Shown piece by piece: positions 6,551 to 24,638 of a stretch of DNA of 30,232 bases (position 1 is its first letter; each line of letters begins with the position of its first letter). This DNA is from a virus (taxonomy: Duplodnaviria > Heunggongvirae > Uroviricota > Caudoviricetes). The DNA lies in the IMG/VR virus record IMGVR_UViG_2897333091_000004. The stretch is one strand, 5' to 3'. A program made the position numbers and the translations under genes. The notes below the pieces were generated by a model. That model saw nothing but the letters and a program-made list of their open reading frames with translations. It searched no databases and had not been told where the DNA came from.

Positions 6551-6622
6551 TTCCTGTTCCGGGCCTTTCCTGCACCTTGCGGCGGGAGGCCTTCGCACAT
6601 CTGTAGTAAAGAGAATTGCAGC

Positions 6623-7012: not shown

Positions 7013-9136
7013 ATGAGTTTGCATGGAGCTGGAATGAACCACGGCCAGCCATTGATCCGGCCAGATTTACGGAGCACAGGCAGGAAACTGAAACCGACCT
7101 GCAACGCGCCATCCGTTACTACCTTGAGGCAGACAAAAAGGCTCTGGAAGAACAGGAAGCGAAGGAGGAAGCCTTTTTCGCACAATCCACCGTGGGTAAA
7201 AAACTCATGGCATCCCTTGAGGAAGCCGGACAGCGTGAAAAGCTGGCACAAAGCATCATCAGCAAGCGTCAGGCAACAGAACAAGACCCGGTGGCCCGTG
7301 CTTTTGCCACACTGAAGGTGCTTCCCGTTTATCTGCGTGAACCTCTGAGCCGCCACCTCTCTTTCCTGCGCAAAAAACAGGAAGCCGATCGCCAGAAAGG
7401 CAAAAAGAGCTGGCAGGCTGAACGCTACGCGCGCGGAACCCTGCGCAAAATATTCGAACGCCTGGACCGCACCGACCACCGCTGGCTGACACCGGGTTAT
7501 CGCTCCCTTGCCGGACGCGAACGCCTGGATGATTTGCTTTACCTGCCGCAGCTCAACAAGCACCAGATACAGACGCTGGCCACCATGACGGCGGCGATGT
7601 TCAGCAGCACCTTCGAAAAACTCTGCGATGGCTTTGGCGCGACCGATGGTGAGCTGACCATGGAGGTGGCACTGAAGGCGTATCAGATGCTGGCCCGCAT
7701 GGTGTTACACCTGCACGCCATGCCTCCACATTATGACGCACTGACAACAGACAAAGACCGCAAGAACGAACCGGACACGGAACTGCTGCCGGGCGCAATC
7801 CTCCGCCTGACCTGTGCGGAATGGTGGAAACGCAAACTGTGGCTGTTACGTTGCGAGTGGCGGGAAGAACAACTCCGCGCCGCCTGTCTGGTTTCCAGAA
7901 AAACATCGCCCTATCTGAGCCAGGACGCGTTAAGCGAGTTTCGCGCACAGCGCGAGAAAACACGCGATTTCCTGAAAAGTTTCATGCTGGAAAACGAAGA
8001 CGGGTTCACGATTGATCTCGAGACGGTGTATTACGCGGGAGTAAGTAACCCGGTCCACCGTAAAGCAGAAATGATGGCCACCATGAAGGGGCTGGAACTT
8101 CTGGCCGAAGCCCGTGGCGACAGAGCGGTGTTTCTGACTGTCACCTGCCCGTCAAAATACCACGCCACAACAGAGAACGGTCATCCGAATCCCAAATGGA
8201 ACGGGGCCACCATGCGCGACTCCAGCGATTACCTGGTTAACACGTTTTTTGCGGCGGTCCGCAAAAAACTGAACCGCGATGGCCTGCGCTGGTATGGCAT
8301 CCGCACGGTGGAGCCTCACCATGACGGCACCGTGCACTGGCATATGATGGTCTTTGCACATCCGGACGAGATTGAAACCATCGTGTCCCATGTCTGCGAT
8401 ATTGCCATTCAGGAAGACCGCCACGAGCTGGGCGATGACATAACTCCGCGTTTTAAGGCTGAGTACGTAGACGGCTCAAAAGGCACGCCAACCAGCTACA
8501 TCGCCACCTACATCGGAAAGAACCTGGACAGCCGCGCCGTGGATGGCATCGACCCGAAAACGGGCAAGCCACGCGTTGACCACGAAACCGGAAAATCAAT
8601 GGCAGAGAGCGTGGAACGCGCCATCGGCTGGGCGCGCCTTCACCGGGTCCGCCAGTTCCAGTTCTTTGGCATTCCCTCTCGTCAGGTATGGCGTGAACTC
8701 CGCCGCCTTGCCAGCCAGATGGCACGCAACCCGGAAGGCCCACAACGGCTGAAGGATGATGCAATGGATGCGGTACTCGCTGCCGCTGATGCCGGGTGTT
8801 TTGCCACCTACATTGAGAAACAGGGCGGCGTACTTGTTCCACGCAAAGACTACCTGATTCGCACCGCCTACGACCTCGCAGATGAGCTGAACGATTACGG
8901 CGAGCAGAGTGTACAGATTTACGGGATCTGGTCGCCGCTCATCGGGGAGTCTTCCCGTGTGTGCACACATCCGGATAACTGGAAGCTGGTAAGACGTAAA
9001 CCTGAAGCAGAAGACAGCGCCCGCGAAAATGGTTTTGACCTTCAGGGCGGCCCTGCCGCCCCTTGGACTCGTGGCAATAACTGTCCCCGTGTACAGGAAA
9101 CGGACAACAACGGGACAGAACAGCCGGAAGAACGGC
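7009..9136 (+). CDS. A: P2 gpA-like rolling-circle replication initiator, allele 2; continues across the gap into 9237-10076
   Basis: Same HUH and YxxxY motifs. About 97 percent identical to allele 1 after roughly residue 110, but the N-terminal ~110 residues are unrelated. The ATG at 7009 overlaps the upstream stop. Confidence 0.75.
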
Positions 9137-9236
9137 NNNNNNNNNNNNNNNNNNNNNNNNNNNNNNNNNNNNNNNNNNNNNNNNNNNNNNNNNNNNNNNN
9201 NNNNNNNNNNNNNNNNNNNNNNNNNNNNNNNNNNNN
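9137..9236. other. assembly gap (100 N); flanking contigs overlap by an identical 127-bp sequence
   Basis: 9010-9136 is identical to 9237-9363. Confidence 1.
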
Positions 9237-10076
9237 GAAGACAGCGCCCGCGAAAATGGTTTTGACCTTCAGGGCGGCCCTGCCGCCCCTTGGACTCGTG
9301 GCAATAACTGTCCCCGTGTACAGGAAACGGACAACAACGGGACAGAACAGCCGGAAGAACGGCCAGCACCGTGGCCGCAGCTCCCTGACGGCATTGAAGT
9401 GAATGAATGGATGCGCTCACTGAAACGGCACGAACGCCGGGCACTGATGCGTTCGCTGCGTGACAAACAGGCCAAAAACAGCAGTGATGAAATGCAGAAC
9501 TGGACACAGAGCCGCAAACAGCCACAGCCTTTGCCTGATAACCACGAATTACTCGCTAAAGAATGGCGGGAGTCTGCCGAATCTCTCGGCCTGCATATCG
9601 GTGAACAGCAGATGCAGCACCTGTTACGGGGCGGCAGCCTGTACGTTGACGGCAGCATCATTGCACCGCAGGGATTTGAAATTGTACGCAAACCGGATAC
9701 CCGCCCGGACAGCCGAATCACGCAGCTCTGGCAGCGCCTGAGCCGTAATCACGGCGTAAGCAGCACGGAGATCCGCCATAACCCGGTCGCCAGCTATCTG
9801 GCACAGCTCGGGGCATCAGACCCCGAAGCCGCCGCACGCCTGACATCCACACTTCAGCAGGACCAGAACACCATGAAAACACCCGTTACCGTGCTTTCTG
9901 ACATGCTGCGCGCCATTCGTGACGCAGAGCACGCACAGAGAATCAGTGAAACCACTGAACGCGCCCGCCGCAAAGCAGACCTGCTGCGGGGTAGCCTGAT
10001 CAGTGGCAACAAAAAACAGACAGAAACGGGATTCACAAATCCCGCAAATGAGCAAAAAACACGCCGCGATATATGA
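9237..10076 (+). CDS. A: C-terminal part of the gpA-like initiator (in frame with the pre-gap sequence through the 127-bp overlap)
   Basis: Frame 0 reads EDSARENGFDLQGG...TEQPEERPAPWPQLPDGIEVNEWMRSLKRHERR... without stops to 10076. The track ORF 9399-10076 is the distal part of the same frame. Confidence 0.6.
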   Translation, partial: EDSARENGFDLQGGPAAPWTRGNNCPRVQETDNNGTEQPEERPAPWPQLPDGIEVNEWMRSLKRHERRALMRSLRDKQAKNSSDEMQNWTQSRKQPQPLPDNHELLAKEWRESAESLGLHIGEQQMQHLLRGGSLYVDGSIIAPQGFEIVRKPDTRPDSRITQLWQRLSRNHGVSSTEIRHNPVASYLAQLGASDPEAAARLTSTLQQDQNTMKTPVTVLSDMLRAIRDAEHAQRISETTERARRKADLLRGSLISGNKKQTETGFTNPANEQKTRRDI

Positions 10077-10117
10077 AGCGCGCACAAAACAGGCGAAAGC
10101 GGGATTTAAAAATCCCG
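10027..10117 (+). promoter_or_regulatory. two related palindromes upstream of parM; candidate parC-like centromere/operator
   Basis: CGGGATTCACAAATCCCG (about 10027-10044) and CGGGATTTAAAAATCCCG (about 10100-10117), followed by the TTAATTAA palindrome and the parM RBS. Confidence 0.3.
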
Positions 10118-10152
10118 TAAACGGTTAATTAACCAACATAAGGAAAATCGAC

Positions 10153-11112
10153 ATGAAAATTTGTATCGACGACGGCTCCACCAACATCAAGCTGGCATGG
10201 ACTGAAAACGGCGAACGCCGCAACGCCATCAGCCCGAACAGCTTCAAGTCGGAATGGTCTGCGCCGTTCGGTGGCTCGCAGCCTGCGAACTACATGCTTG
10301 ATGGCGTGCGCTATGGTTTTGATCCGGTCAGCGATCGCTTTGTCCAGACGACCGACACGCAATACCAGTACAGCGATGTGAATGTCATTGCCATTCATCA
10401 CGCGCTGGTCAAATCAGGCATCACGCCACAGGAGGTGGATGTGGTTGTCACCCTGCCACTGAGCGAGTATTTCGACACAAACGCACAGCCGGACATGGCC
10501 AACATCAACCGCAAAAAAGCGAACGTTATGCGCCCGGTGGAGTACCAGAACGGCGAAGCATTCACTATCCGTAACGTGCGGGTTATGCCTGAATCCATTC
10601 CGGCCGGCTTTAAGGCACTGGCTGACATGAGTCCGTTTGAATCCCTGCTGATTGTGGATTTGGGCGGAACCACGCTGGATGTGGCAAAGGTTCAGGGGCA
10701 ACTGGCAGGTATCAGCCAGGTGTTTTGCGATCCACACGTAGGCGTTTCTCTGATGGCCGATGCCGTACTGTCGGTGATGGCCACTAACGGTATGCGCACC
10801 AGTCACCACATCGCCAATACCATTATCGAACATCGCCATGATGAAGCCTGGCTGCGCCAGCACATCCACAATGACGCACATTACGCCAGCCTGATGGCGG
10901 TTATTCGTGAAAAGGAAGAAACACTGAAACAACGCGTGATCCGCGCGCTGGCGGGTTTTTCGGGTTACGGGCGGGTGATGGTTGTAGGTGGAGGAGCGGA
11001 GATTGTGGCACCCGCTATCCGCGAAGCCTGCGGAGTTAATGCGACTTTCATCGCGGACGGGGTGCCACAGTTTGCTCTGGTTAATGGGCTGTACGCAATG
11101 GACAAGGAGTAA
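10153..11112 (+). CDS. parM: ParM/StbA-type actin-like plasmid segregation ATPase
   Basis: Recalled alignment to plasmid R1 ParM over the whole length: IDDGSTNIKL, ISPNSFK, YSDVNVIAIHHAL, MPESIPAGF, DLGGTTLD, VGGGAE. Confidence 0.85.
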   Translation: MKICIDDGSTNIKLAWTENGERRNAISPNSFKSEWSAPFGGSQPANYMLDGVRYGFDPVSDRFVQTTDTQYQYSDVNVIAIHHALVKSGITPQEVDVVVTLPLSEYFDTNAQPDMANINRKKANVMRPVEYQNGEAFTIRNVRVMPESIPAGFKALADMSPFESLLIVDLGGTTLDVAKVQGQLAGISQVFCDPHVGVSLMADAVLSVMATNGMRTSHHIANTIIEHRHDEAWLRQHIHNDAHYASLMAVIREKEETLKQRVIRALAGFSGYGRVMVVGGGAEIVAPAIREACGVNATFIADGVPQFALVNGLYAMDKE

Positions 11113-11116
11113 ACCA

Positions 11117-11318
11117 ATGACGACACCAACCAGACGGATAAGTTTCTATCTGAAGCCCGCCGCCGTCAAGAACGAAGGCGAAGCATGCGCCTGGCTGGAC
11201 AGCCTTACACCAGAAGCCCGCAAAAGCGGCCAACGCGTGGCTTTTCTGGCCGGGCTGGCACTTCTGAAAATGAATCCGGCAGAGGCTTACCGACTGGCTG
11301 CATGGGCTGATGATGAGG
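11117..11318 (+). CDS. parR: ParR-type centromere-binding adaptor, N-terminal part (cut by the gap)
   Basis: ATG 5 nt after the parM stop. MTTPTRRISFYLKPAAV...LDSLTPEARKSGQRVAFLAGLALL resembles the R1 ParR ribbon-helix-helix N-terminus. Confidence 0.6.
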
Positions 11319-11418
11319 NNNNNNNNNNNNNNNNNNNNNNNNNNNNNNNNNNNNNNNNNNNNNNNNNNNNNNNNNNNNNNNNNNNNNNNNNNNNNNNNNN
11401 NNNNNNNNNNNNNNNNNN
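11319..11418. other. assembly gap (100 N)
   Basis: Run of 100 N. Confidence 1.
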
Positions 11419-11721
11419 GACATAACCGTCTTTGATGGCACCGATATAATCCACTGTAACAGCTGCGCCATTTTCAGTTGAGTAAACGGTCTCATTGCGA
11501 TGGTCTTCTTCATGGCTCCATCCCTTACCCGTAAATACTGCCACTCTTCCCGGAATGTATTCGCCCGGGTCAATACCAGTGGAACAAGCGGGCATACTTA
11601 CGCCAGTATTAATATATTCATCAGACCAGCCCGTATACTCAGATGTTTCAGCATCATAATAAAAACAACGCATATCGCCCGGCACTGTAGCCAGCCCATT
11701 TTCATCAAAAACAGGTTTCAT
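11419..11721 (-). CDS. tail fibre assembly protein (lambda Tfa / Mu U family), N-terminal part; C-terminus lost in the gap
   Basis: MKPVFDENGLATVPGD...IPGRVAVFTGKGWSHEEDHRNETVY matches the conserved N-terminal Tfa region (recalled lambda Tfa motif VAVF...W.LVEDHRGKTVY). Confidence 0.6.
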
Positions 11722-12218
11722 TATTTAGCCCTCACCAGAAAGTTAAATGCAATATTTCGCGGTCTGACAGCAACAAAATTCACACCATCACCCACAGAGT
11801 TACTGGTGAAATTAAATCGTGAAAATCCTGGCTGATTTCCGGCGATGCCATCATGAAAGTTAATTGCGTGTCCTGCACCTCCGCCTATATTCCCGGCAAA
11901 CTGAGAAAAGTTTGTAGCTTCCTGCCAGCTTAATAATTCGCGACCACCATCGGCACCTCGCCCGTCATCCCAGATACGAATGAAATCACCGCGGGCTTCA
12001 GGTAATACCAGTGAAGGAAACACTTTCGCCAGCACAGGGTAATCAGAGGCAGAAAATTTCGCCCCGTTGAACTTCAAAAACACCATACTGGACCAGCTGT
12101 CGATTACAGTATTTGGCATTGCAGCGGACGGCCAGAAGAACGGAACGCCAATAGCTGGAGCACCTTCTCCCAAACCAACGTTTAAGAAAATGCAGAGATT
12201 ACGGCTAACTGGCATCAT
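11721..12218 (-). CDS. tail fibre C-terminal variable domain, probably a silent invertible-segment copy with no start of its own
   Basis: Glycine-rich tail-fibre-like C-terminal sequence directly followed by the tfa gene; its N-terminus runs through the candidate crossover site next to the invertase gene, as in the Mu G or P1 C segment. Confidence 0.5.
   Translation of the reverse strand: MMPVSRNLCIFLNVGLGEGAPAIGVPFFWPSAAMPNTVIDSWSSMVFLKFNGAKFSASDYPVLAKVFPSLVLPEARGDFIRIWDDGRGADGGRELLSWQEATNFSQFAGNIGGGAGHAINFHDGIAGNQPGFSRFNFTSNSVGDGVNFVAVRPRNIAFNFLVRAK
12165..12190. promoter_or_regulatory. candidate Hin/Gin/Pin-family crossover site (gix/hix-like)
   Basis: TTCTCCCAAACCAACGTTTAAGAAAA shares about 17 of 26 positions with the recalled gixL sequence, including the AAACC...GTTT core; located about 55 bp upstream of the invertase start. 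Confidence 0.35.
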
Positions 12219-12245
12219 CCCCGGTTTTTATTCAGGGGATCCATC

Positions 12246-12845
12246 ATGCTTATTGGCTATGTCCGCGTATCAACAAATGACCAGAATACAGAATTGCAGC
12301 GTAACGCGCTGGAGTGCGCAGGATGTGAACTGATTTTTGAAGATAAAATCAGCGGAACGAAATCAGCCAGACCGGGATTGAAAAAACTGCTCAGAACGCT
12401 ATCAGAAGGAGATACGCTGGTTGTCTGGAAGCTGGACAGACTGGGCAGAAGTATGAAACACCTGATCACGCTTATTGAGGAATTGCGGGAAAAAGGTGTT
12501 AATTTCCGTAGTCTAACGGACAGCATTGACACATCAACACCCATGGGGCGTTTCTTTTTTCACGTCATGGGAGCTTTAGCCGAAATGGAACGTGAATTAA
12601 TTGTAGAGCGTACACTGGCCGGGCTGGCAGCAGCACGCGCACAAGGACGCATTGGCGGACGTCGCCCGAAGTTGACAAAAGAACAACACGAGCAAATAGC
12701 GAGGCTGATTAAAAACGGTCATGACAGGAAACAACTGGCGATCATTTACGACATCGGCATATCGACGATTTATCGTTATCACCCTGTAGGCGATATACAG
12801 GCTGAAGAAACAACCAGGCAGACTCAGGAAAATGAAAACCGCTAA
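12246..12845 (+). CDS. pin: serine-recombinase DNA invertase (Pin/Gin/Cin/Hin family)
   Basis: MLIGYVRVSTNDQNTELQ... with the catalytic Ser in the VRVSTNDQ block and a C-terminal HTH; very close to recalled E. coli Pin sequences. Confidence 0.9.
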   Translation: MLIGYVRVSTNDQNTELQRNALECAGCELIFEDKISGTKSARPGLKKLLRTLSEGDTLVVWKLDRLGRSMKHLITLIEELREKGVNFRSLTDSIDTSTPMGRFFFHVMGALAEMERELIVERTLAGLAAARAQGRIGGRRPKLTKEQHEQIARLIKNGHDRKQLAIIYDIGISTIYRYHPVGDIQAEETTRQTQENENR

Positions 12846-12870
12846 TCTGACCATTAGCGGTTTTGCGTTA
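12841..12870. terminator. hairpin terminator between the convergent pin and U genes
   Basis: CCGCTAAT-CTGACC-ATTAGCGG hairpin followed by TTTTGCGTT. Confidence 0.5.
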
Positions 12871-12871
12871 A

Positions 12872-13366
12872 TCAAAACAGCCCTTTAACGGAGCTGGCCG
12901 CGCTGTTAAGGGATGATGTGACCTTATCTTTGAAGCCGGACAGCATATCACTGAACGATGAGGATTGCAGGCGCTCCCGCAAATCCTCATCACAGCGTTC
13001 AAGAGTCAGTGAAAATTCTATCTTTTTCGCCTTACCGTAGCGATCAAACTCGGAACGGGTCGTATTCGTTTCAGTCAGCACATACATGCCGTAAATCTGC
13101 CCGACGCCATCAATCAAAGGCCAGGGTCGTCCTGTATACGCCTGCGTGGTCAGCAGCGACAGCGACACTTCGCCACCTGTAATTTCAGGATAAAGCACAC
13201 CAGAAAGAACGATGCGATCATCACCTGCACCGATATACTGCCAGCTTGCTGAACGGTTAACGCGTTCATTTTTCACATGCCGCCAGCTTTTGTTTTGCTG
13301 TAACTGCTGATGCGGCAATGTGCGCAGCTCAAAAACAAACATGCCGTAGATCATCATCATGGCCAT
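12872..13366 (-). CDS. U: P2 gpU-like tail protein
   Basis: 164 aa beginning MAMMMIYGMFVFELRTLP..., size and N-terminus typical of P2 gpU; directly downstream of the tape measure gene. Confidence 0.75.
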   Translation of the reverse strand: MAMMMIYGMFVFELRTLPHQQLQQNKSWRHVKNERVNRSASWQYIGAGDDRIVLSGVLYPEITGGEVSLSLLTTQAYTGRPWPLIDGVGQIYGMYVLTETNTTRSEFDRYGKAKKIEFSLTLERCDEDLRERLQSSSFSDMLSGFKDKVTSSLNSAASSVKGLF

Positions 13367-13372
13367 GACTCC

Positions 13373-16216
13373 TCAATCTTTATCGTAAAAACTGCCACGC
13401 CCGGCACGGGCGCGCCGTTCCACTTCTGCCCTGACCATTTCACCGACCAGTTTCGCCAGTTCGCGGGGATTCTGCGTAACAACGTTATGCAGATGAACAT
13501 GAATTTCACCACCAAATTCGGAGGCAACAGGCTCCCGGTTACGGGAAGTTACAGGAACTGATGCCACTGGAGATCGTATAGCCTCCGCCACCGGGCGGGA
13601 GCTGGCCGCAACAACAGTGACCAGCGCCGGAGGCAGCGGAGCCGGGACCACGGGTGTGATATTAATTGCGGGGGCAGGCTTACTGACCTGCGCAATCTTC
13701 CGCTCCTGCCACTCCCCACGAACAGCCAGTGCGCGGGGCAGGTTCTTAAAGACAATATCGCCGGGGCCAATGCGTTTTTTCGTCTCATCAACCAGCTTAC
13801 CTGTGTTATCAGCAATTTTGCTGAGTCTGCGTAGCGTCCCGGTATTGCTGTCTGTGAGCGGTTTGTTGTCTTTGGGTTTATCACCTCCGGTGCCATTGCC
13901 ATTTTCCACAGGCTTCGGCGGATTGATTTTCGCCAGGTCCCCCTGAAGCAAGGCAACCTTGTCCTGAAGAATGGCCGCACGCTGTGCGTCTTCGATTTTC
14001 TTGCGCGCCCTTTCCGCTTCATCCGGAAGCACACCGAGTTTTTCAAGTATCCACGCCAGCGTATCCAGTAGCATTTTTGCAGGTGTCAGAACAAGCTGTA
14101 ACGCACCGCCAAGAACGTTACCGAATATCTCGCCAGCACTGGTACATTTATCCAGCGTTTCCTTGCTGGACTCCATCGGTGACAGCAGCGATTTAAACCA
14201 GTTAAACACCTGGCTGATCCCGCTTCCGATTGCGTCAAAAACAGGGCCAAACCGTTCAAAGGTTTCGCGCAACGGGGCCAGTCGCTCCATAATCCCACTG
14301 AACACCCCGGCATAAAACGCCTTGATGGGTTCCCAGTATTTCCAGATGAGAACCGCCGCAGCGACAAACGCTGCAGCAATCAACCCGACCGGACTGAACA
14401 GCGCCCCGATAGCGCCTCCCAGTAAAGAAACGGAACCCGTCACCATTCCCCATAGTGCTGGCAGGACCCTGACAGCATTCATTGATCCGGTCAGGAGAGA
14501 AAAACCAAGACGCAGTTTTGCCAGCGGGCCAGCAAGCACACCAATAGCCAGCGACAACGAGCCAACCGTTGCAGTCATTGCCAGCAACGCACCGCCTGCT
14601 ATCAGTAGCTGGCGCGTCAGTGTCGGATGGGCCTGCGCCAGCGCCGTCACCCTTGATACCACCCGTGTGAGCCACTGCGTGACAGAACGCAGCGGACCGT
14701 CAATCAGATCTGCAATGCGGATGCGCAACCCTTCCCATGCACTGCCGAGTGATTTCAGATCGCCGTCAAGGTTGTTGGCCATAACCTTTGCTGTGCGTTC
14801 AGCCTCACCGCGTGCGCCTTCAAGTTCTTTTCTCAGTTTAGGTAAGGAACCGTCACCCGCTGCATCAACGAGCGCCATAAACGATGTGAAAGCCTCTTCT
14901 CCGGCAATGTCCTTAAAGAACGATACCCGGTCAACTTCCCCGTATTTGCGGGTGGCTTTATAAAGGTCGGCCAGCACATCCTCCATCGGGCGCATTTTGC
15001 CCCCGGCATCCGAGACGGACACGCCCAGCTCTTTCAGAGCTTCTGCCGCCGCCTTTGGCGGTGATGCCAGACGAGCCAGGCTGGCACGCATTGCCGTCCC
15101 GGCATCACTCCCTCTGATACCCATATTCGCCAGCACGCCCGCCATCGCTGCGGCCTGCTCCAGCGATATTCCCAGCTTACCCGCCACCGGACCTGCATAT
15201 TTCATGGTTTCGCCCAGCGCGCGAAGGTCAGTGTTAGTACGGGTAAACGCTGCTGTAAGCGTGTCACCGACCCGGTCCATCTGGTCAGCGGAGAGGCCGA
15301 ACTGCGTCAGGATATTTGAGCCAATATCCGCCGTCTCGCCAAGGTCCATACCGCCAGCCGTTGCCATGCTCAGCACGCCCGGAAGCGCAGCCTGAATGGC
15401 CTGCGGTGTGAAGCCAGCCATTGCAAGAAATGCCTGCCCACTGGCGGCATCGCCTGCGGTGAACTGCGTTTCAGAGCCAAGTTTTAACGCCTGCTCACGC
15501 AGCGCCTTAAACTGCGGGCTGTTTTTGTCGATTCGCGTCAGTGCCTGAACGCGGGACATCTCTTTCCCGAACCCGATCGCAGGCTGCAAAAAACGCCCGG
15601 CAGCATAGCCGCCCGCCGCTGCCGCACCAATTGCCAGTGCACCACCTGTTTTCAGTTTTCCCGCTGTTTCCTGCGCGCGCGAATACCGCTCACGCGCCCG
15701 CGTTACACGCGCAAGCGCCTGCCGTTCGCGTTCAAGCTGGTTGTTGTACTGTTCGGTGCGTCTGATGGCCTGCTGGATGGTGTTATCGCTGCCTGTCAGG
15801 GAAATGCCGTGGCGTTTCAGCTCTCCGCCAAGCTCCCGCATTTTCTGAATTTCCCGTGTGCGCGATTCATTCAGGCGTTCAAGCCGGGTGCTTAACTGCT
15901 GCATCAGCTTTTGTTGTTTTTCGCTGAGCACTGTACCCGTGCGTTGTAACTGATTAAGGGCGTTAAGCTGGCGTCGTGCTTTCACGATGCCCGCATCCGC
16001 TTTACTGACAGCGTCGCGGGCGCGCTCAAATGATCGCGCCTGACGCTCGAGATTTTTGATCGCCCCCTGCGTTCGCTGGATGGAGTCACCAAACTGCCCC
16101 ATCAGGCGGCGTGCGTTTTCGGCAGGTCGGGTCAGCCTGTCAACGGCGCTGAAAGCGACCCGGATATCAAGAGTCTTCATTGTCTGCATTCCCGCTGCGA
16201 AGTGCCGCCCGCTCAC
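13373..16216 (-). CDS. T: tail tape measure protein (P2 gpT-like), GTG start
   Basis: 947-aa protein, coiled-coil rich N-terminus and Gly/Ala-rich hydrophobic central region; sits between E/E' and U. Confidence 0.85.
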   Translation of the reverse strand: MSGRHFAAGMQTMKTLDIRVAFSAVDRLTRPAENARRLMGQFGDSIQRTQGAIKNLERQARSFERARDAVSKADAGIVKARRQLNALNQLQRTGTVLSEKQQKLMQQLSTRLERLNESRTREIQKMRELGGELKRHGISLTGSDNTIQQAIRRTEQYNNQLERERQALARVTRARERYSRAQETAGKLKTGGALAIGAAAAGGYAAGRFLQPAIGFGKEMSRVQALTRIDKNSPQFKALREQALKLGSETQFTAGDAASGQAFLAMAGFTPQAIQAALPGVLSMATAGGMDLGETADIGSNILTQFGLSADQMDRVGDTLTAAFTRTNTDLRALGETMKYAGPVAGKLGISLEQAAAMAGVLANMGIRGSDAGTAMRASLARLASPPKAAAEALKELGVSVSDAGGKMRPMEDVLADLYKATRKYGEVDRVSFFKDIAGEEAFTSFMALVDAAGDGSLPKLRKELEGARGEAERTAKVMANNLDGDLKSLGSAWEGLRIRIADLIDGPLRSVTQWLTRVVSRVTALAQAHPTLTRQLLIAGGALLAMTATVGSLSLAIGVLAGPLAKLRLGFSLLTGSMNAVRVLPALWGMVTGSVSLLGGAIGALFSPVGLIAAAFVAAAVLIWKYWEPIKAFYAGVFSGIMERLAPLRETFERFGPVFDAIGSGISQVFNWFKSLLSPMESSKETLDKCTSAGEIFGNVLGGALQLVLTPAKMLLDTLAWILEKLGVLPDEAERARKKIEDAQRAAILQDKVALLQGDLAKINPPKPVENGNGTGGDKPKDNKPLTDSNTGTLRRLSKIADNTGKLVDETKKRIGPGDIVFKNLPRALAVRGEWQERKIAQVSKPAPAINITPVVPAPLPPALVTVVAASSRPVAEAIRSPVASVPVTSRNREPVASEFGGEIHVHLHNVVTQNPRELAKLVGEMVRAEVERRARAGRGSFYDKD

Positions 16217-16403
16217 GCCAGCTAACCACTTCGCCGGGCGTCATCATGAAGATTTCGGCGGGCGACCAGTTAAAAATAACGGCAATATCTGCCACAAAGT
16301 CTTCTATGTGCTCAAAGCACACAACCGTGATCAGGCTTCCGTCGCCTGTTCGTTCTTCCCGCCAGAGTCCGCACCGCTCAAAAAATTTACGGCAACCACA
16401 CAT
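16167..16403 (-). CDS. E': E' extension ORF (-1 frame), expressed as the E+E' frameshift product
   Basis: ORF in the -1 frame overlapping the 3' end of E and the 5' end of T; the T6G slippery site lies within the overlap. Confidence 0.65.
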   Translation of the reverse strand: MCGCRKFFERCGLWREERTGDGSLITVVCFEHIEDFVADIAVIFNWSPAEIFMMTPGEVVSWRERAALRSGNADNEDS

Positions 16404-16696
16404 AACTGAATAAAGTCACGGGATGCCATTTTTTTGATCGTCACTTCATCCAGTCGCGGTGATGTCACGCGTGACAGCAGCGTAAACATGGATTCCGCTT
16501 TCAGACTCAGCACATCAGACAGCGACAAATCTCGCAGAGATCCAGCCTGCTCAATAGCTCCGGTGATCTCCACATACGTGATTTTTTCGCCGCCTCGCTC
16601 AATTGGTTGGGTAAGTTTTACGCCACGCTCACTGGTTTCTTTCACAGTGTCAGCAACGACCGTGTTTTCGGTATCGATGTTTTTCGTCTCTTTCAT
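16331..16696 (-). CDS. E: tail assembly chaperone gpE
   Basis: Small acidic protein between the tail tube and tape measure genes; overlaps the -1 frame E' ORF. Confidence 0.75.
   Translation of the reverse strand: MKETKNIDTENTVVADTVKETSERGVKLTQPIERGGEKITYVEITGAIEQAGSLRDLSLSDVLSLKAESMFTLLSRVTSPRLDEVTIKKMASRDFIQLCVVAVNFLSGADSGGKNEQATEA
16379..16385 (-). promoter_or_regulatory. programmed -1 ribosomal frameshift slippery heptamer (UUUUUUG)
   Basis: The mRNA reads AAU-UUU-UUG in the E frame and AAA-UUU-UUU-GAG in the E' frame. T6G is the slippery site described for P2 E/E+E'. Confidence 0.6.
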
Positions 16697-16750
16697 CAGG
16701 AAACTCCTTTCAGTCAGAGGCGACGCACTGCGCCGCCTGCATATTACTTA

Positions 16751-17263
16751 TCAGCCAAGCCCGAGCGCGGAACGGATGCGATCGGGCACAATGTCCTTGC
16801 CGTCCTTCCGGTAAATGAAGTTCAGCAGGTCAATCTCCCACAACGGGCGATCGTTAACACTCAGCTTGTAGTAGGTGTTTTTAATGGCGTAAGTGTGTGA
16901 TGTGGCTTCGCCCTGTTTGGCTTCCCCCATATCAATTTCCGTCACACGTCCGCGCATTTCGACTTCATACAAGTCGCTTTCTGCATCGGTGTAGTATTCA
17001 CCCGCAAAACGCAGCAGCGTGCCGTCAATCGTGCCGCCATACTTAAGGAACAGCTCACGAACTGCGCCCCCCATGACAAAGCTCGCATCAAGCGCGGAGT
17101 CGTCCAGGCCGAGATCAATACTTACCGCCCCCATCATGCCACCACCCCGGTAGCTGTCGGTTTTGCGCGTCAGCTTAGGCAAAGTGACGGACGTCACCTT
17201 ACCCACTTCGTTTTCACCATCCACAAACAGCGTAAAAAAGCGAAGATGTTTTGGCACAGCCAT
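16751..17263 (-). CDS. FII: major tail tube protein (P2 gpFII-like)
   Basis: 170-aa protein immediately downstream of the sheath gene; conserved FETUD order. Confidence 0.8.
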   Translation of the reverse strand: MAVPKHLRFFTLFVDGENEVGKVTSVTLPKLTRKTDSYRGGGMMGAVSIDLGLDDSALDASFVMGGAVRELFLKYGGTIDGTLLRFAGEYYTDAESDLYEVEMRGRVTEIDMGEAKQGEATSHTYAIKNTYYKLSVNDRPLWEIDLLNFIYRKDGKDIVPDRIRSALGLG

Positions 17264-18447
17264 CAGGCACCTCCCAGCACCGCAAATGCGGGTTCAAAGT
17301 ATTCATCAGTAAACGTCTGGTAAAGCTCCATGTCTTCCAGTGGCGGAACGGGCGTATATTTGTAGCGAATGCGCACACGCCCCTGACGTAAATCCGTGGT
17401 GCTGTTATCCACCACGTCATACCAGCACTCCGCACCAATCAGTTTCCCGGCAGTAACCAGTGAATCCAGTTTTGCCCTGATGGCACTGATAACATCCTTC
17501 ACGTTCGCAGGCGTCAGTGGACTGTCGATGGTTTCAAACTGCGCTTCCGCAATTGAATCAGCCAGCACCTGTGCGGTTCGGGTATACACCTCAAAGATGT
17601 AGGCGTTCGTTTCCGGTGTGCGGTTGCCCCAGAAGCGGAACCCGTTGCGACGAATAATGGTCGTGATTTCTTTGTTGTTGAGGCTGTTGGCATCACTGTC
17701 TTCGGCCTGCAACGACCAGAACACATGCCTGGACATCCCCAGCACATTTTTAACCGGAACGTTGGACAGCGATTTGTGCCAGCCCTGCTCATGGTCAATG
17801 TACGCACGAAGGCCGCACGCATAGGCAGGCGCGGGGAACGTTTCGTTTTCGCCACTTTTCGGGTTGTAGGCGATGAAGTCCGGCCATAAGAGCATCACTT
17901 CACGTTCGTTGAATTTCTGGCGGTAGGTAATCGCTTCAGCCATCGTGTTACAGCCGTGACATGAGGCATACACAAATGCGCGCAGTTTACCCGCAATCAC
18001 GCACAGGGATTTTGTCACCGCCTCCGTGTCCAGCTCCGGCGCGGCCAGAATACGCGGACGGTATCCGATGCTTTCATCCTGCTCTGCAACAAGCAGCGCA
18101 TACATCCCCGTATAGCTGCCGTCATCCTCAGAACCACCGATAACCAGTTGATCCTGCGTCTTTTCGTCTTCTTCTTTGTGTTCAGCCACGCGAACGACGA
18201 TCACCTTTGTGCTCACCTGGTCTGCGATGGCCTTAAGCGCACGATAAAGCGTCCCCGTTGTTCCGCATTTTCCCAGCACGTCATTGACGCGGGTCAGCAG
18301 TGTGGGCTTGTTCAGCGGGAACAGCTTCGCGTCCGCATCATCCGCCGTTGCCACGATACCGATAACGCTGGAATCAACATCGTTAATCGCTGTTACCAGG
18401 TCGGTATTTTCCGTAACACGGGCACCATGAAAACGAGTTTCACTCAT
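17263..18447 (-). CDS. FI: contractile tail sheath protein (P2 gpFI-like)
   Basis: 394-aa protein (MSETRFHGARVTENTDLV...), size and position typical of myovirus sheath proteins. Confidence 0.85.
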   Translation of the reverse strand: MSETRFHGARVTENTDLVTAINDVDSSVIGIVATADDADAKLFPLNKPTLLTRVNDVLGKCGTTGTLYRALKAIADQVSTKVIVVRVAEHKEEDEKTQDQLVIGGSEDDGSYTGMYALLVAEQDESIGYRPRILAAPELDTEAVTKSLCVIAGKLRAFVYASCHGCNTMAEAITYRQKFNEREVMLLWPDFIAYNPKSGENETFPAPAYACGLRAYIDHEQGWHKSLSNVPVKNVLGMSRHVFWSLQAEDSDANSLNNKEITTIIRRNGFRFWGNRTPETNAYIFEVYTRTAQVLADSIAEAQFETIDSPLTPANVKDVISAIRAKLDSLVTAGKLIGAECWYDVVDNSTTDLRQGRVRIRYKYTPVPPLEDMELYQTFTDEYFEPAFAVLGGA

Positions 18448-18604
18448 AGCTTCAGCCCCTTGTATCCGTTAAATGATTCGGCAACAATCATCACCCACCA
18501 CGCGCGTAATCTCACCCCTGCGCCGTTCTCCCGCCACGGCGACAACAAAAAGCAGTAACCCCCTCCGCACGCACATGCGACCATGCCACACAGGGAGGGA
18601 GCAG

Positions 18605-19714
18605 ATGACCGACACCACCATGCAATTGCTCAGTCAGAGCACAGACCCCGTGAAAATGCCGGATTTTGATATTCTCGCCGAGGGGGAAACACTGTCCGGC
18701 GTGGCAGAGCGCCTGATGAGCCTGTCACTGACCGACAACCGGGGATTTGAAGCAGACCAGCTCACCATCACGCTGGATGATGCTGATGGTCAGTTGCAGT
18801 TGCCGCCACGGGGCGCTCGCCTGACGGTTCTCATTGGCTGGAAAGGCGAACCGCTGACAGAAAAAGGCACTTACATTGTTGATGAAATTGCTCATGAAGG
18901 ACCGCCCGACAGACTGACCATTTCAGCCAGAAGCGCAGATTTTCGGGATGAATTTAACGTCAAGCGCGAAGTGTCCTGGCATGATGTGACCGTTGAGCGA
19001 GTGGTATCCGCCATCGCTCATCGGTACGGTCTGAAACCGCAAATCAGCGAAATGCTGATGGATATCGAAATCGACCACGCCGACCAGACCGAAGAAAGCG
19101 ATATGTCCTTCCTTACGCGCATGGCGGAAATGCTGGGCGCAATCACCACGGTAAAAAGCGGCAATCTGTTATTCATCATGCCCGGTGGTGGCGTGAACGC
19201 ACAGGGCCAGCCGTTGCCCTCGTTCGCCATTACACGCAGCAGCGGCGATCGCCATCAGTTCCGTATTGCTGACCGCGAGGCGTATACGGGGGTACGCGCC
19301 TACTGGCTTGATCTTAATTACGGGAAAAAGAAAAAGGTCAGCGTAAAACGCCGTAAACCGCCAAAACCCAAAAAGGAGAAAAGCAGCAGCCGTGAAGGTG
19401 ATTATATGGAAGGTGCGGAAGGCAATGTGTTTGTGTTACGCAAGACTTATCAGAACGAGCAGGCAGCAAGACGCGCAGCGGCGGCAAAGTGGCAGCAGCT
19501 ACAACGCGGAGCCGCATCATTTTCCATCACGCTGGCACGTGGACGTGCAGAACTCTACCCCGAAATGCATGGCACGGTAACAGGATTTAAAAGCGAGATT
19601 GATAATCAGGACTGGATTATTGCAAAAGCCGAGCACACCATTGATAACAGCGGCTTTACCACGCAGCTTGAGCTTGAGGCAAAAATCCCGGAATGGATAG
19701 CGGAAACAGAGTGA
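18605..19714 (+). CDS. D: P2 gpD-like tail protein (late control gene D family)
   Basis: ATG at 18605 with a GGAGGG SD (the track ORF start at 18473 is an upstream extension); about 370 aa; followed by ogr as in P2. Confidence 0.8.
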   Translation: MTDTTMQLLSQSTDPVKMPDFDILAEGETLSGVAERLMSLSLTDNRGFEADQLTITLDDADGQLQLPPRGARLTVLIGWKGEPLTEKGTYIVDEIAHEGPPDRLTISARSADFRDEFNVKREVSWHDVTVERVVSAIAHRYGLKPQISEMLMDIEIDHADQTEESDMSFLTRMAEMLGAITTVKSGNLLFIMPGGGVNAQGQPLPSFAITRSSGDRHQFRIADREAYTGVRAYWLDLNYGKKKKVSVKRRKPPKPKKEKSSSREGDYMEGAEGNVFVLRKTYQNEQAARRAAAAKWQQLQRGAASFSITLARGRAELYPEMHGTVTGFKSEIDNQDWIIAKAEHTIDNSGFTTQLELEAKIPEWIAETE

Positions 19715-19756
19715 GCAACTTAGAATAGCGGCAGCACCACGTTAAGGGAGGTCGCT

Positions 19757-20017
19757 ATGTTCCGTTGTCCGCTTTGTGGCGCATCTGCCCGTATCCGCAC
19801 CAGTCGTCCAGAAAATGATTCAAACACCGTGCGGCAAAAGTATTACCAGTGTAACAACCTGGAATGCGGCGTATGCTTCTCAACACTGGAAGCTTTCCAT
19901 AAATTCACATCAAAACACGCCTCCGGCGTTCACTCTTCAGAAGATATCCCGTGGCATGATCTGCCAGCTTCACACAGGGGAAACAATCAGATGAGTTTGC
20001 CTTTATCTCAGAATTAA
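19757..20017 (+). CDS. ogr: Ogr/Delta-family zinc-finger late-gene transcription activator
   Basis: MFRCPLCGASARIRTSR...YYQCNNLECG, the C-x2-C...C-x4-C pattern and N-terminus of P2 Ogr. Confidence 0.85.
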   Translation: MFRCPLCGASARIRTSRPENDSNTVRQKYYQCNNLECGVCFSTLEAFHKFTSKHASGVHSSEDIPWHDLPASHRGNNQMSLPLSQN

Positions 20018-20088
20018 CAGGCAGAATTGCCGGAGTAACAAAAAAGCGATAGATTACGCGCGGGTGCCTTTCGGCTGATGGTCGGAGG

Positions 20089-20188
20089 NNNNNNNNNNNN
20101 NNNNNNNNNNNNNNNNNNNNNNNNNNNNNNNNNNNNNNNNNNNNNNNNNNNNNNNNNNNNNNNNNNNNNNNNNNNNNNNNNNNNNNNN
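20089..20188. other. assembly gap (100 N)
   Basis: Run of 100 N. Confidence 1.
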
Positions 20189-20520
20189 GTGACGGCGATA
20201 CCGTAGAGCAGATGGTTATACATCCGTTCATTGGCTTTGAGCAGCCCTTCATTCAGCGCCGGAGAACAGACCTGTGATATCAGGTTATCCAGTGCTTTTT
20301 CCGATAACTGGCAGGTTTTGCCACCCGCTATAAAGGAACGCTTCGACAGCTCTTCACGCAGAACCGGACGCAGCACCACCTCATCCTGTTTATAGCCCCG
20401 GTAATCCATAATCTGTTTCGGAGATAAAAACGTCCAGCCGAGGCTGGTCAGTAACGTCAGTGCCGGAATTTTGGCGCTGTATTCTTCCTGGAATTTAGGC
20501 GTGTACGTCTGGTTCATCAT
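20189..20520 (-). CDS. hsdR: N-terminal fragment of a probable type I restriction endonuclease R subunit (cut by the contig edge)
   Basis: Last gene of the hsdM-hsdS operon, preceded by an AAAGGA RBS; N-terminus has the general HsdR_N-like character. Identification is by position and weak pattern only. Confidence 0.4.
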
Positions 20521-20569
20521 TAATCCTTTTCTTTCTGGCGCTACTCGCTACTGGTCACATGAAGATTCA

Positions 20570-21253
20570 TCAATGCAGACAGCACTTCTTAAATTTTTTA
20601 CCGCTGCCACACGGACACGGGTCATTTCGCCCGGGCATGTTTTCTGCCCCCTTCACTGGAACAGGCCGGGATGATGCCTCTGACATTCTCACCGACAACC
20701 AGTGCTGGTAAAGCGCCAGTGCCGCAGGCTGAATGAGAGTAATACTCTGTTCAAATTGAACAGGTGACATTTTCTCAACCACTGGGAAGTTCTTTTCGAT
20801 ACCATGAAGGGCTATCGCCTCCAGCGAGGGACGTAAGGCCTCTGGCAAGGCTGACCAGTCATCCAGAGACCGGCCTTTCATATACCCGAAACACCACTCT
20901 TCGACGATTGTATATGTCTTCCCCTTCACCTCACGTCCATTGAAAATCGGTTCAAACTGTTCAGGGGCCTCATACAGGCAGCCAGCGATATCGTTCATAT
21001 GCTGAAAACACAGCCCCACAAAACGCGTCATCTCTTTTTCAGTGGTCCAGTGAGGGTAGTAGTCACCTCGCCCCCAGATAGCACTAAGCCAGGTATTAGG
21101 GGGGATCATATTCGGGCCAGAGACAATCGCTGTCAGAAAGCCATCCAGCTCAGAGAAACAGAGCACAGAGTCATCATTGCCGTATTTCAGCAACACCTCT
21201 TCCAGCCAGTCGATTTCCCGGTCAATCAGCGGCCCGCTTTTCGTCAGTTTCAT
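20570..21253 (-). CDS. YecA-like protein with a C-terminal SEC-C zinc-binding motif
   Basis: Terminal [20 protein letters not shown] is a canonical SEC-C motif; the body resembles the UPF0149/YecA family. The start ATG overlaps the hsdS stop (ATGA). Confidence 0.75.
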
Positions 21254-22476
21254 TCGGCAACCGCCTCATCGACCTTAACACGACGTTTGCCAGTCAATAG
21301 CTGTTGCATCAGGGCTTTTTTCTCATCTCTCAGGCAGGCGAGTTTTTTCTCCAGCGTGGAGATTTCGGTGTCAGCAGCGGACAGCACGGCGGCGATTTTT
21401 TGTTGCTCTTTAATAAATGGGCAAGAAAAGCTTAAAGTTTCAAAATCTTTCTTGGAAAGTTCTAAAAATGTTGAGCCAGATGATTTTTTGATCATCTCAT
21501 TTGTGTTCATTTGCAACAAATAATAAATAAATTCGATATTAAACCCTTCATTCGGAATGATGTTTTTAAAACCTTGATTGGTACAAATTTCCGATGTCGA
21601 AATTGCTAAAGCACCAATGGTAGCTCTTGTACATACCATCAAACTACCTTTTGGCAAAAGAACAGCTGAGCTATTTAGTAATCCCGCAGGAGTAATTTTT
21701 CTACTAGTATTGCTAACGAACCTACCCGTTAATGCAGTAACATCAGTTGGGGTAAGCCATAGAATATCGCCTTCCCAATACATGGCCATGTTTGTATCAG
21801 GTGTTCCACCGGATACAACTTTGCCCATTTGTATTAGTTTAGTAATTTTCCACTCCCCACTAAACCTCACCCCATTCTCATCCAGCAACCGTTTATTCCC
21901 GGTAAGCAATTGCTGCATCAGGGCTTTTTTCTGCTGTTGACTGTTGGCGAGAAGGCTTTCCGTCACCGAAATTGCCTTATCCCAGGCGGTCAGAATTTGA
22001 GATATTTTATCTTGTTCACAAATAGCAGGAGTTTTTATGTTTAACGCTCTAATATCAGAAAGGTTAATTCTAGAAAAGGTAGAACCACCTGCACTTTTTG
22101 CTATCTGTCGCTGGACTAAATCTGATTGTAATGTGTAGTAAATAAACCGCCAATCTGCATGGATTGCTTTAATTAAGACAGTGTCTTGCCCTAATACAAA
22201 TGGCTTTTTGGAATCCACATAGCTAACAACACCGACAGACTGGTTACGACTCATAACCAAATCACCTTGTTCAACAACACAGTGATCCATCAGAGAGCGA
22301 TATTCTTCTTCTGTAACTCTTTTTACAGGTGAAATCAGATCTAAGGCTCCCCATTTTATCGTCCCCGGTGAGACAAGTGGTATTCCCGATTTAACGTACT
22401 CAGGAGTCCTGTGTTTGCAATCGATTATCGACGCAACCGATGAGAGTTTCTGAGATGACCACCCCTTAGGAATCAT
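21250..22476 (-). CDS. hsdS: type I restriction-modification specificity subunit
   Basis: Two target-recognition halves separated and followed by the repeated conserved block [11 protein letters not shown]; overlaps the 3' end of hsdM. Confidence 0.85.
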
Positions 22477-23989
22477 AACCCAACTCCTTCAAATATCCAG
22501 CCATCTCCGTTTCCAGCTTCGCCAATTCCGCTTTCAGTTGCTCACGCTCAGCACGTACCGCCAGCAAATCGATCTCTTCCTCTTCTTCAAAGGTATCGAC
22601 ATAGCGCGGAATATTGAGGTTGTAATCGTTGTCCTGAATCTCTTTCAGGCTGGCAAGGTAGGCATATTTCTCGACGTTATCGCCATCACGGTAGGTCTTG
22701 ACGATTTTCTTAATGTTTTCTTCGCTAAGCTGGTTCTGGTTTTTACCTGCCTTGAATTCACGACTGGCATCGATAAACAGCACCTTGTCATCAACTTTCT
22801 GCTTTTTGAAAATCAGAATCGCAGCCGGAATCCCCGTACCGTAGAACAGTTTTTCCGGCAGACCAATTACCGCATCCAGCAAATTTTCGTCGATCAGTTT
22901 CTGGCGAATTTTACCTTCGCTGGAGCCACGGAAAAGCACACCGTGTGGCACAACTACGCCCATACGGCCAGTTCCCGGTTTCAGGGTTTCGATCATATGC
23001 GAGATAAAAGCGTAATCTCCTTTAGTCTTCGGCGGTACACCGCGACGAAAACGGCCAAACTTATCGTTCTCGGCCTCGTCATGGCCCCACTTATCGAGGC
23101 TGAACGGTGGGTTAGCGGTCACGATATCAAACAGCATCAGGTCGCCATTTTTATCGAGCAGCTTCGGGTTGCGAATGGTATCGCCCCACTCGATTTTATG
23201 GTTGTCTTCCCCGTGCAGGAACATATTCATTTTCGCCAGCGACCACGTAGAACCGATCGCTTCCTGACCGAACAATGCATAGTTACGACTATCATGCCCG
23301 GAGACAATTTTACGCCCACACTTCATCAATAATGAACCGGAACCACAGGCTGGATCGCAGATGGTATCACCCGGTTGCGGATCGAGCAGTTCTGCAATCA
23401 GGTCCGAAACTTCCGGCGGGGTATAGAACTCCCCGGCTTTCTGCCCACCGCTGGCGGCAAAGTTTTTGATCAGGTATTCGTAAGCATTGCCGATAACGTC
23501 CAGCGTACCGACACGACTCGGCTTCAGGTTGAGATCTTCACCGGCGAAGTCTTCCAGTAGCTGACGAAGGATGGTGTTTTTCTGTTTTTCTTCGCCAAGA
23601 CGATCGGTGTTAAACGAAATATCCTGGAACACGCTTTTCCCGGCATCTTTCAGTTTGGTTCCGTTGGCTTCTTCGATTGCATGCAGAGCCTGATCGATAC
23701 GCTCACCGTTACCCGGCTCATGGCGGCGTTCGTACAGCGCATAAAAGCTGGCACTTTTTGGCAGTACAAAACGCTCGTTGGCCATCATCGCTTCAATCAG
23801 TTCCGGCACATCGCCATACTGTTCTTTGTATTCGTCATAGTGATCCTGCCAGACATCTGAAATGTACTTGAGGAACAGCATGGTAAGGATAAAGTCTTTA
23901 TAGGTATCAGCACTGATGGTGCCACGGAACGTATCACACGCGGCCCACAGGGCTTTGTTGATCGTGTCCTGACTGATTTTGTCGTTCAT
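22466..23989 (-). CDS. hsdM: type I restriction-modification N6-adenine DNA methyltransferase
   Basis: AdoMet-binding motif DPACGSGSLL and catalytic NPPF motif; 507 aa. Confidence 0.9.
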   Translation of the reverse strand: MNDKISQDTINKALWAACDTFRGTISADTYKDFILTMLFLKYISDVWQDHYDEYKEQYGDVPELIEAMMANERFVLPKSASFYALYERRHEPGNGERIDQALHAIEEANGTKLKDAGKSVFQDISFNTDRLGEEKQKNTILRQLLEDFAGEDLNLKPSRVGTLDVIGNAYEYLIKNFAASGGQKAGEFYTPPEVSDLIAELLDPQPGDTICDPACGSGSLLMKCGRKIVSGHDSRNYALFGQEAIGSTWSLAKMNMFLHGEDNHKIEWGDTIRNPKLLDKNGDLMLFDIVTANPPFSLDKWGHDEAENDKFGRFRRGVPPKTKGDYAFISHMIETLKPGTGRMGVVVPHGVLFRGSSEGKIRQKLIDENLLDAVIGLPEKLFYGTGIPAAILIFKKQKVDDKVLFIDASREFKAGKNQNQLSEENIKKIVKTYRDGDNVEKYAYLASLKEIQDNDYNLNIPRYVDTFEEEEEIDLLAVRAEREQLKAELAKLETEMAGYLKELGYDS

Positions 23990-24207
23990 GAATCATCCTG
24001 GTCTGAAGAAAAAGCTAGCGATGCAGGGCTTTGCATCTTAAAAATTGCGGTAAATGATACCGTAAGATGCCTCCCCTGACACGCCAATATCGCAGCATTC
24101 AGGTTTGCATCATCCCCGTAATATCGACATGAGACAGACTGACACAACCGGGCTCGTCACTCGCTAAAAACCAATTATCTTAGTAAGATAGCATCCATAT
24201 TAGCCAT

Positions 24208-24233
24208 GGTGTAAAACTGCCGTTGGGGTAATG
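24208..24233 (+). repeat. direct repeat copy 1 (GGTGTAAAACTGCCGTTGGGGTAATG)
   Basis: 24 of 26 identical to 26180-26205, with weaker similarity extending about 25 bp further. Confidence 0.6.
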
Positions 24234-24361
24234 ATGATCCATATATCACCCGTTCTGGTGTGTGAAGCTGACATGATCCATAATCGGCAACGTTGATGCC
24301 CTTTGATTGTAATAGTGGCCGTCAATGTGATTCCCTTGTTGACTGGAGGTCTCCGGATAGT

Positions 24362-24628: not shown

Positions 24629-24638
24629 TGACTCCAAC

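Follow-up and report, generated by a model that had tools for sequence, protein, structure and literature searches.

Why should the tail genes of a P2-like phage point away from the gene that shares their operon in P2? The question is raised by a stretch of viral DNA of 30,232 nucleotides (IMG/VR record IMGVR_UViG_2897333091_000004, Caudoviricetes), referred to here as the window, in which the tail genes FI, FII, E/E′, T, and U are on the minus strand, whereas D and ogr to their right and a serine DNA invertase gene (pin) to their left are on the plus strand. An earlier note on this DNA described the FI-U block as inverted in place and named invertase action at secondary sites as a plausible origin, with a chimeric contig as another possibility. 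The comparisons presented here show that the inversion relative to P2 is real but lineage-typical; it is not local, invertase-driven, or misassembled. Very probably, the window carries the ordinary late layout of a P88-like (Xuanwuvirus) prophage of the P2 family, in which an old inversion was fixed in an ancestor and a promoter region built on a shared dyad would keep both transcription units working.

In the annotated P2 record the genes from FI to ogr (FI, FII, E, E′, T, U, D, ogr) share a strand, and a single mapped start is recorded for the “F operon; encodes FI, FII, E, E', T, U, D”; on this point the earlier note described P2 correctly. In Burkholderia phage KS5, too, D, U, and T lie on one strand (PMC3091744). 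Phages 186, HP1, and phiCTX are also co-directional. The window shares with the F (FETUD) operon of P2 and 186 both the set and the internal order of FI, FII, E/E′, T, U, D, and ogr, including an Ogr-type activator gene downstream of D. The difference is one of orientation: in P2 these genes all run the same way, with D overlapping the end of U and read from pF, whereas in the window FI-U is inverted and D is divergent from FI. The window proteins are only 31-49% identical in amino acid sequence to those of P2.

A much closer comparison is available in Escherichia phage P88 (NC_026014). Positions 12235-20088 of the window align with P88 26966-34807 in one collinear blastn piece of 7858 bp at 95.7% identity, covering 82% of the 9.6-kb query. 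The RefSeq annotation of P88 places H and G on the plus strand, G′ and H′ on the minus strand, a DNA invertase on the plus strand, U, T, E′, E, FII, and FI on the minus strand, and D on the plus strand; relative to P2, FI-U alone is flipped with respect to H-G, D-ogr, int-C, and cox-A. P88 is viable, being mitomycin-inducible and plaque-forming, with a contractile tail visible by electron microscopy (PMC5285337). Single-piece matches were also obtained to other Xuanwuvirus members and to Citrobacter phage phiSM, and from the invertase (or the U terminator) to ogr the group of P88, P884B11, 500465-2, 520873, 503458, phiSM, PhiR44_2, and Chuche is 93-97% identical to the window in nucleotide sequence. 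Gene order, strands, the 157-bp spacer between FI and D, and the dyad within that spacer are common to the window and this group. PhiR44_2 (96.9% identical) has no invertase, and reads J, I, H, G (+), U through FI (-), and D, ogr (+). The genus criterion of the International Committee on Taxonomy of Viruses is about 70% nucleotide identity across the genome. Judged by collinear, high-identity DNA from the U terminator through ogr, and by order and strands matching those of P88 and PhiR44_2 in this region of a gapped scaffold, the locus can be assigned to the P88-like (Xuanwuvirus) late tail region. Unlike P88, the window has a tail-fibre variable segment left of the invertase that matches lambdoid side-tail-fibre/tfa DNA.

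The same layout extends well beyond Xuanwuvirus. Phages SEN4 (Senquatrovirus), 3LV2017 (Reginaelenavirus), and phiT5282H (Novemvirus), representing three further Peduoviridae genera, have the P88-type order and no invertase. SEN4/5, 3LV2017, phiT5282H, and Serratia phage KSP20 all resemble the window in carrying H-G (+), U-T-E-FII-FI (-), D-ogr (+), and int-C (-); they differ from it in their lower nucleotide identity (64-73%) and in having no invertase between the fibre genes and U. The comparison with related phages on which the earlier note had staked its interpretation thus goes the other way, this being the normal gene order in P88, PhiR44_2, SEN4, 3LV2017, and phiT5282H. The arrangement is therefore already known as data, in deposited, annotated genomes of isolated phages.

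Prophages show the same pattern. Of 5426 complete E. coli genomes, 1390 show any match to a 1051-bp probe for the FI/D junction, and in 1355 of these the probe is intact (at least 80% covered). The P88-type order thus occurs in about 25% of the complete genomes. The partial matches that were sampled either lack the D end or consist of a short fragment only; in a partial group from O157:H7 (one locus examined), an IS3 element lies beside FI. The probe for the pin/U junction is intact in 621 of the complete genomes. A synthetic canonical junction joining U to D in P2 style was covered in none of the 1425 E. coli genomes that contain its halves. Beyond E. coli, a search with the D protein, limited to one genome per species, returned 47 loci with D 65-99% identical, from Salmonella, Trabulsiella, Symbiopectobacterium, Edwardsiella, Serratia, Kluyvera, Erwinia, Enterobacter, Citrobacter, Mixta, Pantoea, Kosakonia, Pectobacterium, Brenneria, Izhakiella, Klebsiella, Raoultella, Yokenella, Rouxiella, and others. 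Upstream DNA is sufficient at 43 loci, drawn from about 20 Enterobacterales genera, and every one of them reads T(-) E(-) FII(-) FI(-) followed by D(+) ogr(+). Two contigs carrying Firmicute labels (Vagococcus sp. WN89Y and a Planococcaceae metagenome-assembled genome) have D/ogr regions that share 98-99% identity with the E. coli type; they probably reflect enterobacterial contamination of the assemblies.

Searches against Pfam and PHROG bear out the gene identities and strands given in the earlier note. On the minus strand, from left to right, are gpU (12872-13366; Phage_P2_GpU, 5.5e-39; 99% amino acid identity to P88), the gpT tape measure (13373-16216; PhageMin_Tail, 3.7e-58), an E′/GpE-family frame (16167-16403; PHROG 1756 tail protein, 9e-44; annotated “GpE family phage tail protein” in relatives) that overlaps the 3′ end of E, the gpE-like tail assembly chaperone (16331-16696; PHROG 103 tail protein, 1e-34; 31% amino acid identity to P2 E), the gpFII tail tube (16751-17263; Phage_tube, 7.5e-47), and the gpFI tail sheath (17263-18447; Pfam sheath domains; 46% amino acid identity to P2 FI). 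To the left of the block, on the plus strand, is the invertase of Pin/Gin/Hin type (12246-12845; Resolvase, 6e-52, plus HTH_7), annotated as DNA invertase in P88. To the right, also on the plus strand, are gpD (18605-19714; Phage_GPD, the late control D family, a tail/baseplate hub; 49% amino acid identity to P2 D), whose start is the one annotated in P88 and is preceded by GGGAGGG, and the ogr-type zinc-finger late activator (19757-20017; Ogr_Delta, 5e-14; motif CX2CX24CX4C). The two spacers are exactly as long as had been noted: 26 bp (12846-12871) between the stop codons of the invertase and U, and 157 bp (18448-18604) from the FI ATG (18447, minus strand) to the D ATG (18605).

Does the invertase, lying exactly at one edge of the block, account for the orientation of the block? 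The region to the left of the invertase has the features of a fibre-switching cassette. On the minus strand, an alternative tail-fibre C-terminal (variable) segment (11721-12218; PHROG tail fibre profiles, C-terminal parts only) occupies the position of P88 gp42 in what appears to be an invertible cassette, and next to it is the 5′ part of a tail-fibre assembly gene, tfa (11419-11721; PHROG tail fibre assembly families, residues 1-101), cut by the sequence gap at 11319-11418. The only strong gix/hix-like site in the window, TTCTCCCAAACCAACGTTTAAGAAAA (12165-12190), has 17 of the 18 specified consensus positions; it falls within the alternative fibre frame, a short way upstream of the invertase gene. 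The consensus was validated on the two real sites of P88, which flank its invertible fibre segment. The partner of the 12165-12190 site is not in the window; the gap-free piece starts at 11419, and the partner would lie past the scaffold gap. In having a Resolvase+HTH_7 invertase beside an alternative fibre C-terminus/tfa pair, the window resembles the Mu G, P1 C, e14 P, and P88 H/G cassettes, and the placement of a 26-bp gix-like site within the fibre reading frame is likewise as in Gin/Hin/Cin/Pin systems. The fibre C-terminus/tfa DNA itself (11419-12218) is 92-95% identical to lambdoid side-tail-fibre/tfa DNA (mEp213, mEp043, vB_EcoM-606R2), a case of fibre-module exchange across phage families.

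The FI-U block lies on the other side of the invertase, to its right. Unlike an invertible segment, it has no flanking sites in inverted orientation and occurs in one fixed orientation, the canonical U to D junction being absent as described above; the invertase is its neighbour, yet is dispensable for the arrangement. Gin/Hin-type inversion pertains only to the fibre cassette left of the invertase. The cassette itself is missing from PhiR44_2 and Chuche, in which the sequence shared with the window starts at 12787 and 12826, respectively, just left of a terminator hairpin at 12835-12864. Because the shared sequence begins there, the invertase cassette behaves as an optional insert at the convergent junction of G and U in some members, and its adjacency to the block is accordingly best regarded as coincidental. 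Other contents are found at the same place: an E. coli prophage without the invertase has the identical FI-U/D order with just a tfa remnant beside U, and in the O157:H7 remnant an acetyltransferase gene occupies the invertase position.

The hairpin at 12835-12864, in the convergent pin/U spacer, has a 12-bp stem with U-runs on both strands and was detected by a terminator scan (folding energy -16.9 kcal/mol with z-score -4.9, and -15.6 kcal/mol with z-score -4.3). It lies within backbone sequence common to the invertase-less phages and is a plausible bidirectional intrinsic terminator. The FI-U transcript would end at this hairpin, which would also end the convergent pin or tail-fibre transcript.

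These observations bear directly on three other accounts of the block. A recent in-place inversion by the adjacent Pin-type invertase at secondary sites, perhaps leaving a block that still flips in a subpopulation, would fit the ending of the invertase gene 26 bp from the U stop codon and the genuine gix-like site just upstream of that gene. It is nevertheless highly improbable: the identical arrangement in P88, in the 1355 E. coli genomes, in other genera, and in close relatives that lack an invertase shows that the event did not take place in this genome, and the flipped junction was not recovered in any of the 1425 genomes. A scan of 11200-19800 found no inverted repeats linking 12846-12871 with 18448-18604, only short pairs at chance level, and the gix/hix scan of the breakpoints gave half-site scores at background only (best 7/9 on the left and 6/9 on the right). 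What survives of “inverted in place” is that FI-U is inverted relative to P2 while D-ogr has kept its orientation. The block might instead have been inverted by a serine invertase acting on cryptic sites long ago, with the Xuanwuvirus cassette at the U breakpoint as the relic of that event. The presence of the cassette at one breakpoint in many Xuanwuvirus members speaks for such a history, to which we give only a slim chance: the three other genera with an inverted block have no invertase there, within Xuanwuvirus the cassette is a presence/absence indel with its edge to the left of the terminator in the backbone, and no remnants of sites are found at the FI/D breakpoint.

That the orientation of FI-U is a mis-join in an assembly chimera has a negligible probability. 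The assembly is indeed untrustworthy at its joins, since the window is a scaffold of seven pieces separated by six runs of exactly 100 N (469-568, 3017-3116, 6061-6160, 9137-9236, 11319-11418, and 20089-20188), and it includes an assembly bubble laid out in series. The invertase/U and FI/D junctions, however, are both inside one gap-free piece (11419-20088), and hundreds of complete genomes, as well as isolated phages, match them base for base at 95-99% identity. The phrase “within one contig” is thus right for the two junctions and the inversion relative to P2, and wrong for the window, which is not a single contig.

Detached from the FI operon, D needs a promoter of its own, as the earlier note pointed out, and a strong predicted candidate is present in the 157-bp divergent region (18448-18604). 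Three blocks stand out as conserved when 40 distinct FI/D intergenic sequences, taken from about 20 genera, are aligned. The central block, GACAACAAA, is kept in at least 90% of the aligned sequences and is preceded by T(G/C)T-N12; together these form a conserved dyad, TCT/TGT-N12-ACAACAAA, in which ACAACAAA is nearly invariant. In the window the dyad is TCT-N12-ACA (18527-18544, centre 18535.5; extended form GTTCT-N12-ACAACAAAAAGC), a candidate Ogr site. A perfect TGT-N12-ACA is found in many genera, whereas the window and its E. coli relatives have TCT-N12-ACA; an exact search for TGT-N12-ACA consequently gave no match in the FI/D region of the window, and the TCT variant was recognized by comparison with the P/O region of P88 together with the multi-genus alignment. 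The D-side block, CGCGCGC.TG.aA.caT, is extended -10-like and stands at a fixed distance from the dyad across about 20 genera; it corresponds in the window to TGcGACCAT (18576-18584, plus strand), assigned to a rightward D-ogr promoter with a predicted start near 18591. The FI-side block, ATa.TC on the plus strand, reads GAtTAT on the FI strand and corresponds to the -10-like hexamer GATGAT (18487-18492, minus strand), assigned to a leftward FI promoter with a predicted start near 18480. A generic sigma-70 scan gave no match in the FI/D spacer, a result in line with activator-dependent promoters. Small “hypothetical protein” open reading frames are annotated inside the region, differing between records and strands (33155-33286 in L001, 8716-8868 in L052, and 9694-9807 in L055); these calls are probably spurious, since the conservation resembles that of promoter elements and not that of coding sequence.

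The geometry of the region recalls a known pair of P2 promoters. TGT-N12-ACA is the consensus of the four Ogr-dependent late promoters of P2 (PMC3931495, citing Christie & Calendar 1985 and Julien & Calendar 1995). One annotated activator site in P2 serves the divergent promoters pP and pO, whose mapped starts, 3016 and 3127, are equidistant (55.5 nt) from the dyad centre, 3071.5. In the window, two -10-like regions are placed, as in pP/pO, for predicted starts 55.5 nt to either side of a single central dyad and 111 bp apart, the dyad itself having one mismatch to TGT-N12-ACA. GATGAT and GACCAT occupy -12 to -7 for such starts around 18535.5, so that a -10 element is found at the spacing of the mapped P2 promoters in both directions. 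The P2 pair drives P-Q and O-S, whereas the pair in the window would drive FI-U and D-ogr, a function assigned by analogy. The P/O intergenic region of P88 has the same TCT-N12-ACAACA element with hexamers at the same offsets, and in the P88 genome (35.8 kb) T[GC]T-N12-ACAAC is found at only four places, of which two lie in its two divergent late intergenic regions. A cognate activator is encoded next to D, namely the Ogr_Delta protein described above. Its cysteine spacing, CX2CX24CX4C, differs from the CX2CX22CX4C quoted for P2 Ogr (PMC3931495); together with the TCT half-site of the E. coli members, this may reflect co-variation of activator and site.

A probable history can be assembled from these elements. 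Long ago, in an ancestor shared by a large clade of Peduoviridae from Enterobacterales, a segment comprising the PF promoter, FI, FII, E/E′, T, and U would have been inverted between the tail-fibre genes and D and then fixed; one old inversion defining this clade is the simplest reading, with its polarity taken from the co-directional phages. The inversion would have brought the symmetric activator site of PF beside D, where it would now serve both FI-U and D-ogr, as the conserved dyad and -10 blocks, the P2 pP/pO geometry, and the same element in the P88 P/O region all suggest. Transcription of FI-U leftward and of D-ogr rightward would then proceed from back-to-back late promoters sharing the central Ogr-type dyad TCT-N12-ACAACA (18527-18544). 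The serine invertase would be an optional cassette for tail-fibre switching that some members have acquired between G and U.

Several considerations weigh against this account. The dyad of the window has TCT, not TGT, and so differs by one base from the consensus; the -10 hexamers, which were chosen for their position, are weak; Ogr binding, transcription start sites, and Ogr dependence of the FI/D region are deduced from sequence; the ancestral order, and with it the direction of change, is drawn from a few outgroups and not from a rooted phylogeny; and in the literature on P88, Xuanwuvirus, SEN4/5, and P2-like phages no discussion of an inverted block or of these promoters was found. Some of these points lend themselves to a different model, in which the layout is lineage-typical but D-ogr is transcribed from an unrelated promoter (constitutive or dependent on another factor), while the ACAACAAA block serves only PF or has another role. 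The D-side GACCAT is weak and the leader predicted from it is only about 14 nt long, the dyad has C in place of the consensus G, and in P2 ogr also has its own promoter. Such a model is unlikely. It leaves unexplained why about 20 genera keep CGCGCGC.TG.aA.caT at a constant spacing to the dyad, and why the geometry is that of pP/pO, where one site works in both directions; moreover, D is a structural tail gene whose late expression is needed alongside FI-U. The inherited P88-like layout with a shared Ogr-type dyad is thus preferred.

The remainder of the window has to be read with its assembly in mind. The ends of several pieces share exact 127-bp overlaps (2890-3016 = 3117-3243 = 6161-6287; 5934-6060 = 9010-9136 = 9237-9363), a pattern that identifies a k=127 assembly graph. 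The two pieces of the gpA region, 3117-6060 and 6161-9136, are 95% identical and are alternative branches of a bubble placed in series; these serial gp15-gpA alleles imitate a tandem duplication of replication gene A. The bubble suggests that the source contained two related P88-like prophages or a mixed population. Positions 569-11318 correspond to only about 7.25 kb in complete E. coli genomes. Given the 100-N gaps, the 127-bp overlaps, and this shorter span, the apparent tandem gpA and the direct join between ParR and the tail-fibre remnant are scaffold artefacts or unverified joins. Genes for head, lysis, and baseplate are absent from the gapped scaffold, and a defective remnant with a tandem gpA duplication and a deletion of head, lysis, and baseplate genes was considered and then set aside in view of the six gaps and exact overlaps, which mark the features in question as scaffold joins and an assembly bubble. 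Open reading frames that span N gaps (e.g., 2738-3331, 10988-11425, 11287-11721, and 20014-20520) are artefactual or truncated.

Several other features of the window are recorded here. Plasmid-partition-type genes for ParM/StbA (10153-11112) and ParR/StbB (11117-11318) lie 3′ of gpA, likewise in P88 and in the O157:H7 remnant, and constitute an actin-type segregation module inside an integrating P2-like phage. Independent defective relatives in E. coli O157:H7 strain 2159 and Citrobacter rodentium (CRPr20; PMC6456863) keep an early region with gpA-ParMR and the sheath/tube/tape-measure block while missing the head-to-baseplate genes; the edge of their deletion lies between ParR and the fibre/invertase region, a layout that the scaffold join of the window imitates. 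The last piece (20189-30232) adjoins ogr only across an N gap. It encodes a YecA-like UPF0149/SEC-C protein (20570-21253), the type I restriction-modification proteins HsdS (21250-22476) and HsdM (22466-23989), an IS1 transposase (24639-25142), a DUF2787 protein (26396-26830), and a P4-type integrase (28194-29441). Positions 227-468 hold an IS1 fragment that matches 25016-25257, and a YecA-family gene lies between D and ogr in another E. coli prophage.

The main value of these findings is a correction. With P2 and 186 as the sole reference, a normal layout resembles a rearrangement, and P2-like prophages should also be compared with the P88/SEN4-type order; the case further illustrates that the invertase lies beside the block by coincidence. 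A small, testable addition is our inference of a bidirectional promoter, which predicts that in an abundant group of prophages one conserved Ogr-type dyad serves the divergent FI and D-ogr promoters. More tentatively, and with somewhat less than even confidence, it can be proposed that moving the symmetric Ogr operator of PF beside D created a single-operator bidirectional late promoter and placed a short D-ogr operon directly under Ogr, giving a tighter positive feedback on the late activator than in P2. This proposal was not encountered in the literature searched. If it is true, the fixation of this order in four phage genera and in the prophages of about 20 bacterial genera would be due to rewiring of Ogr control and not to neutrality.

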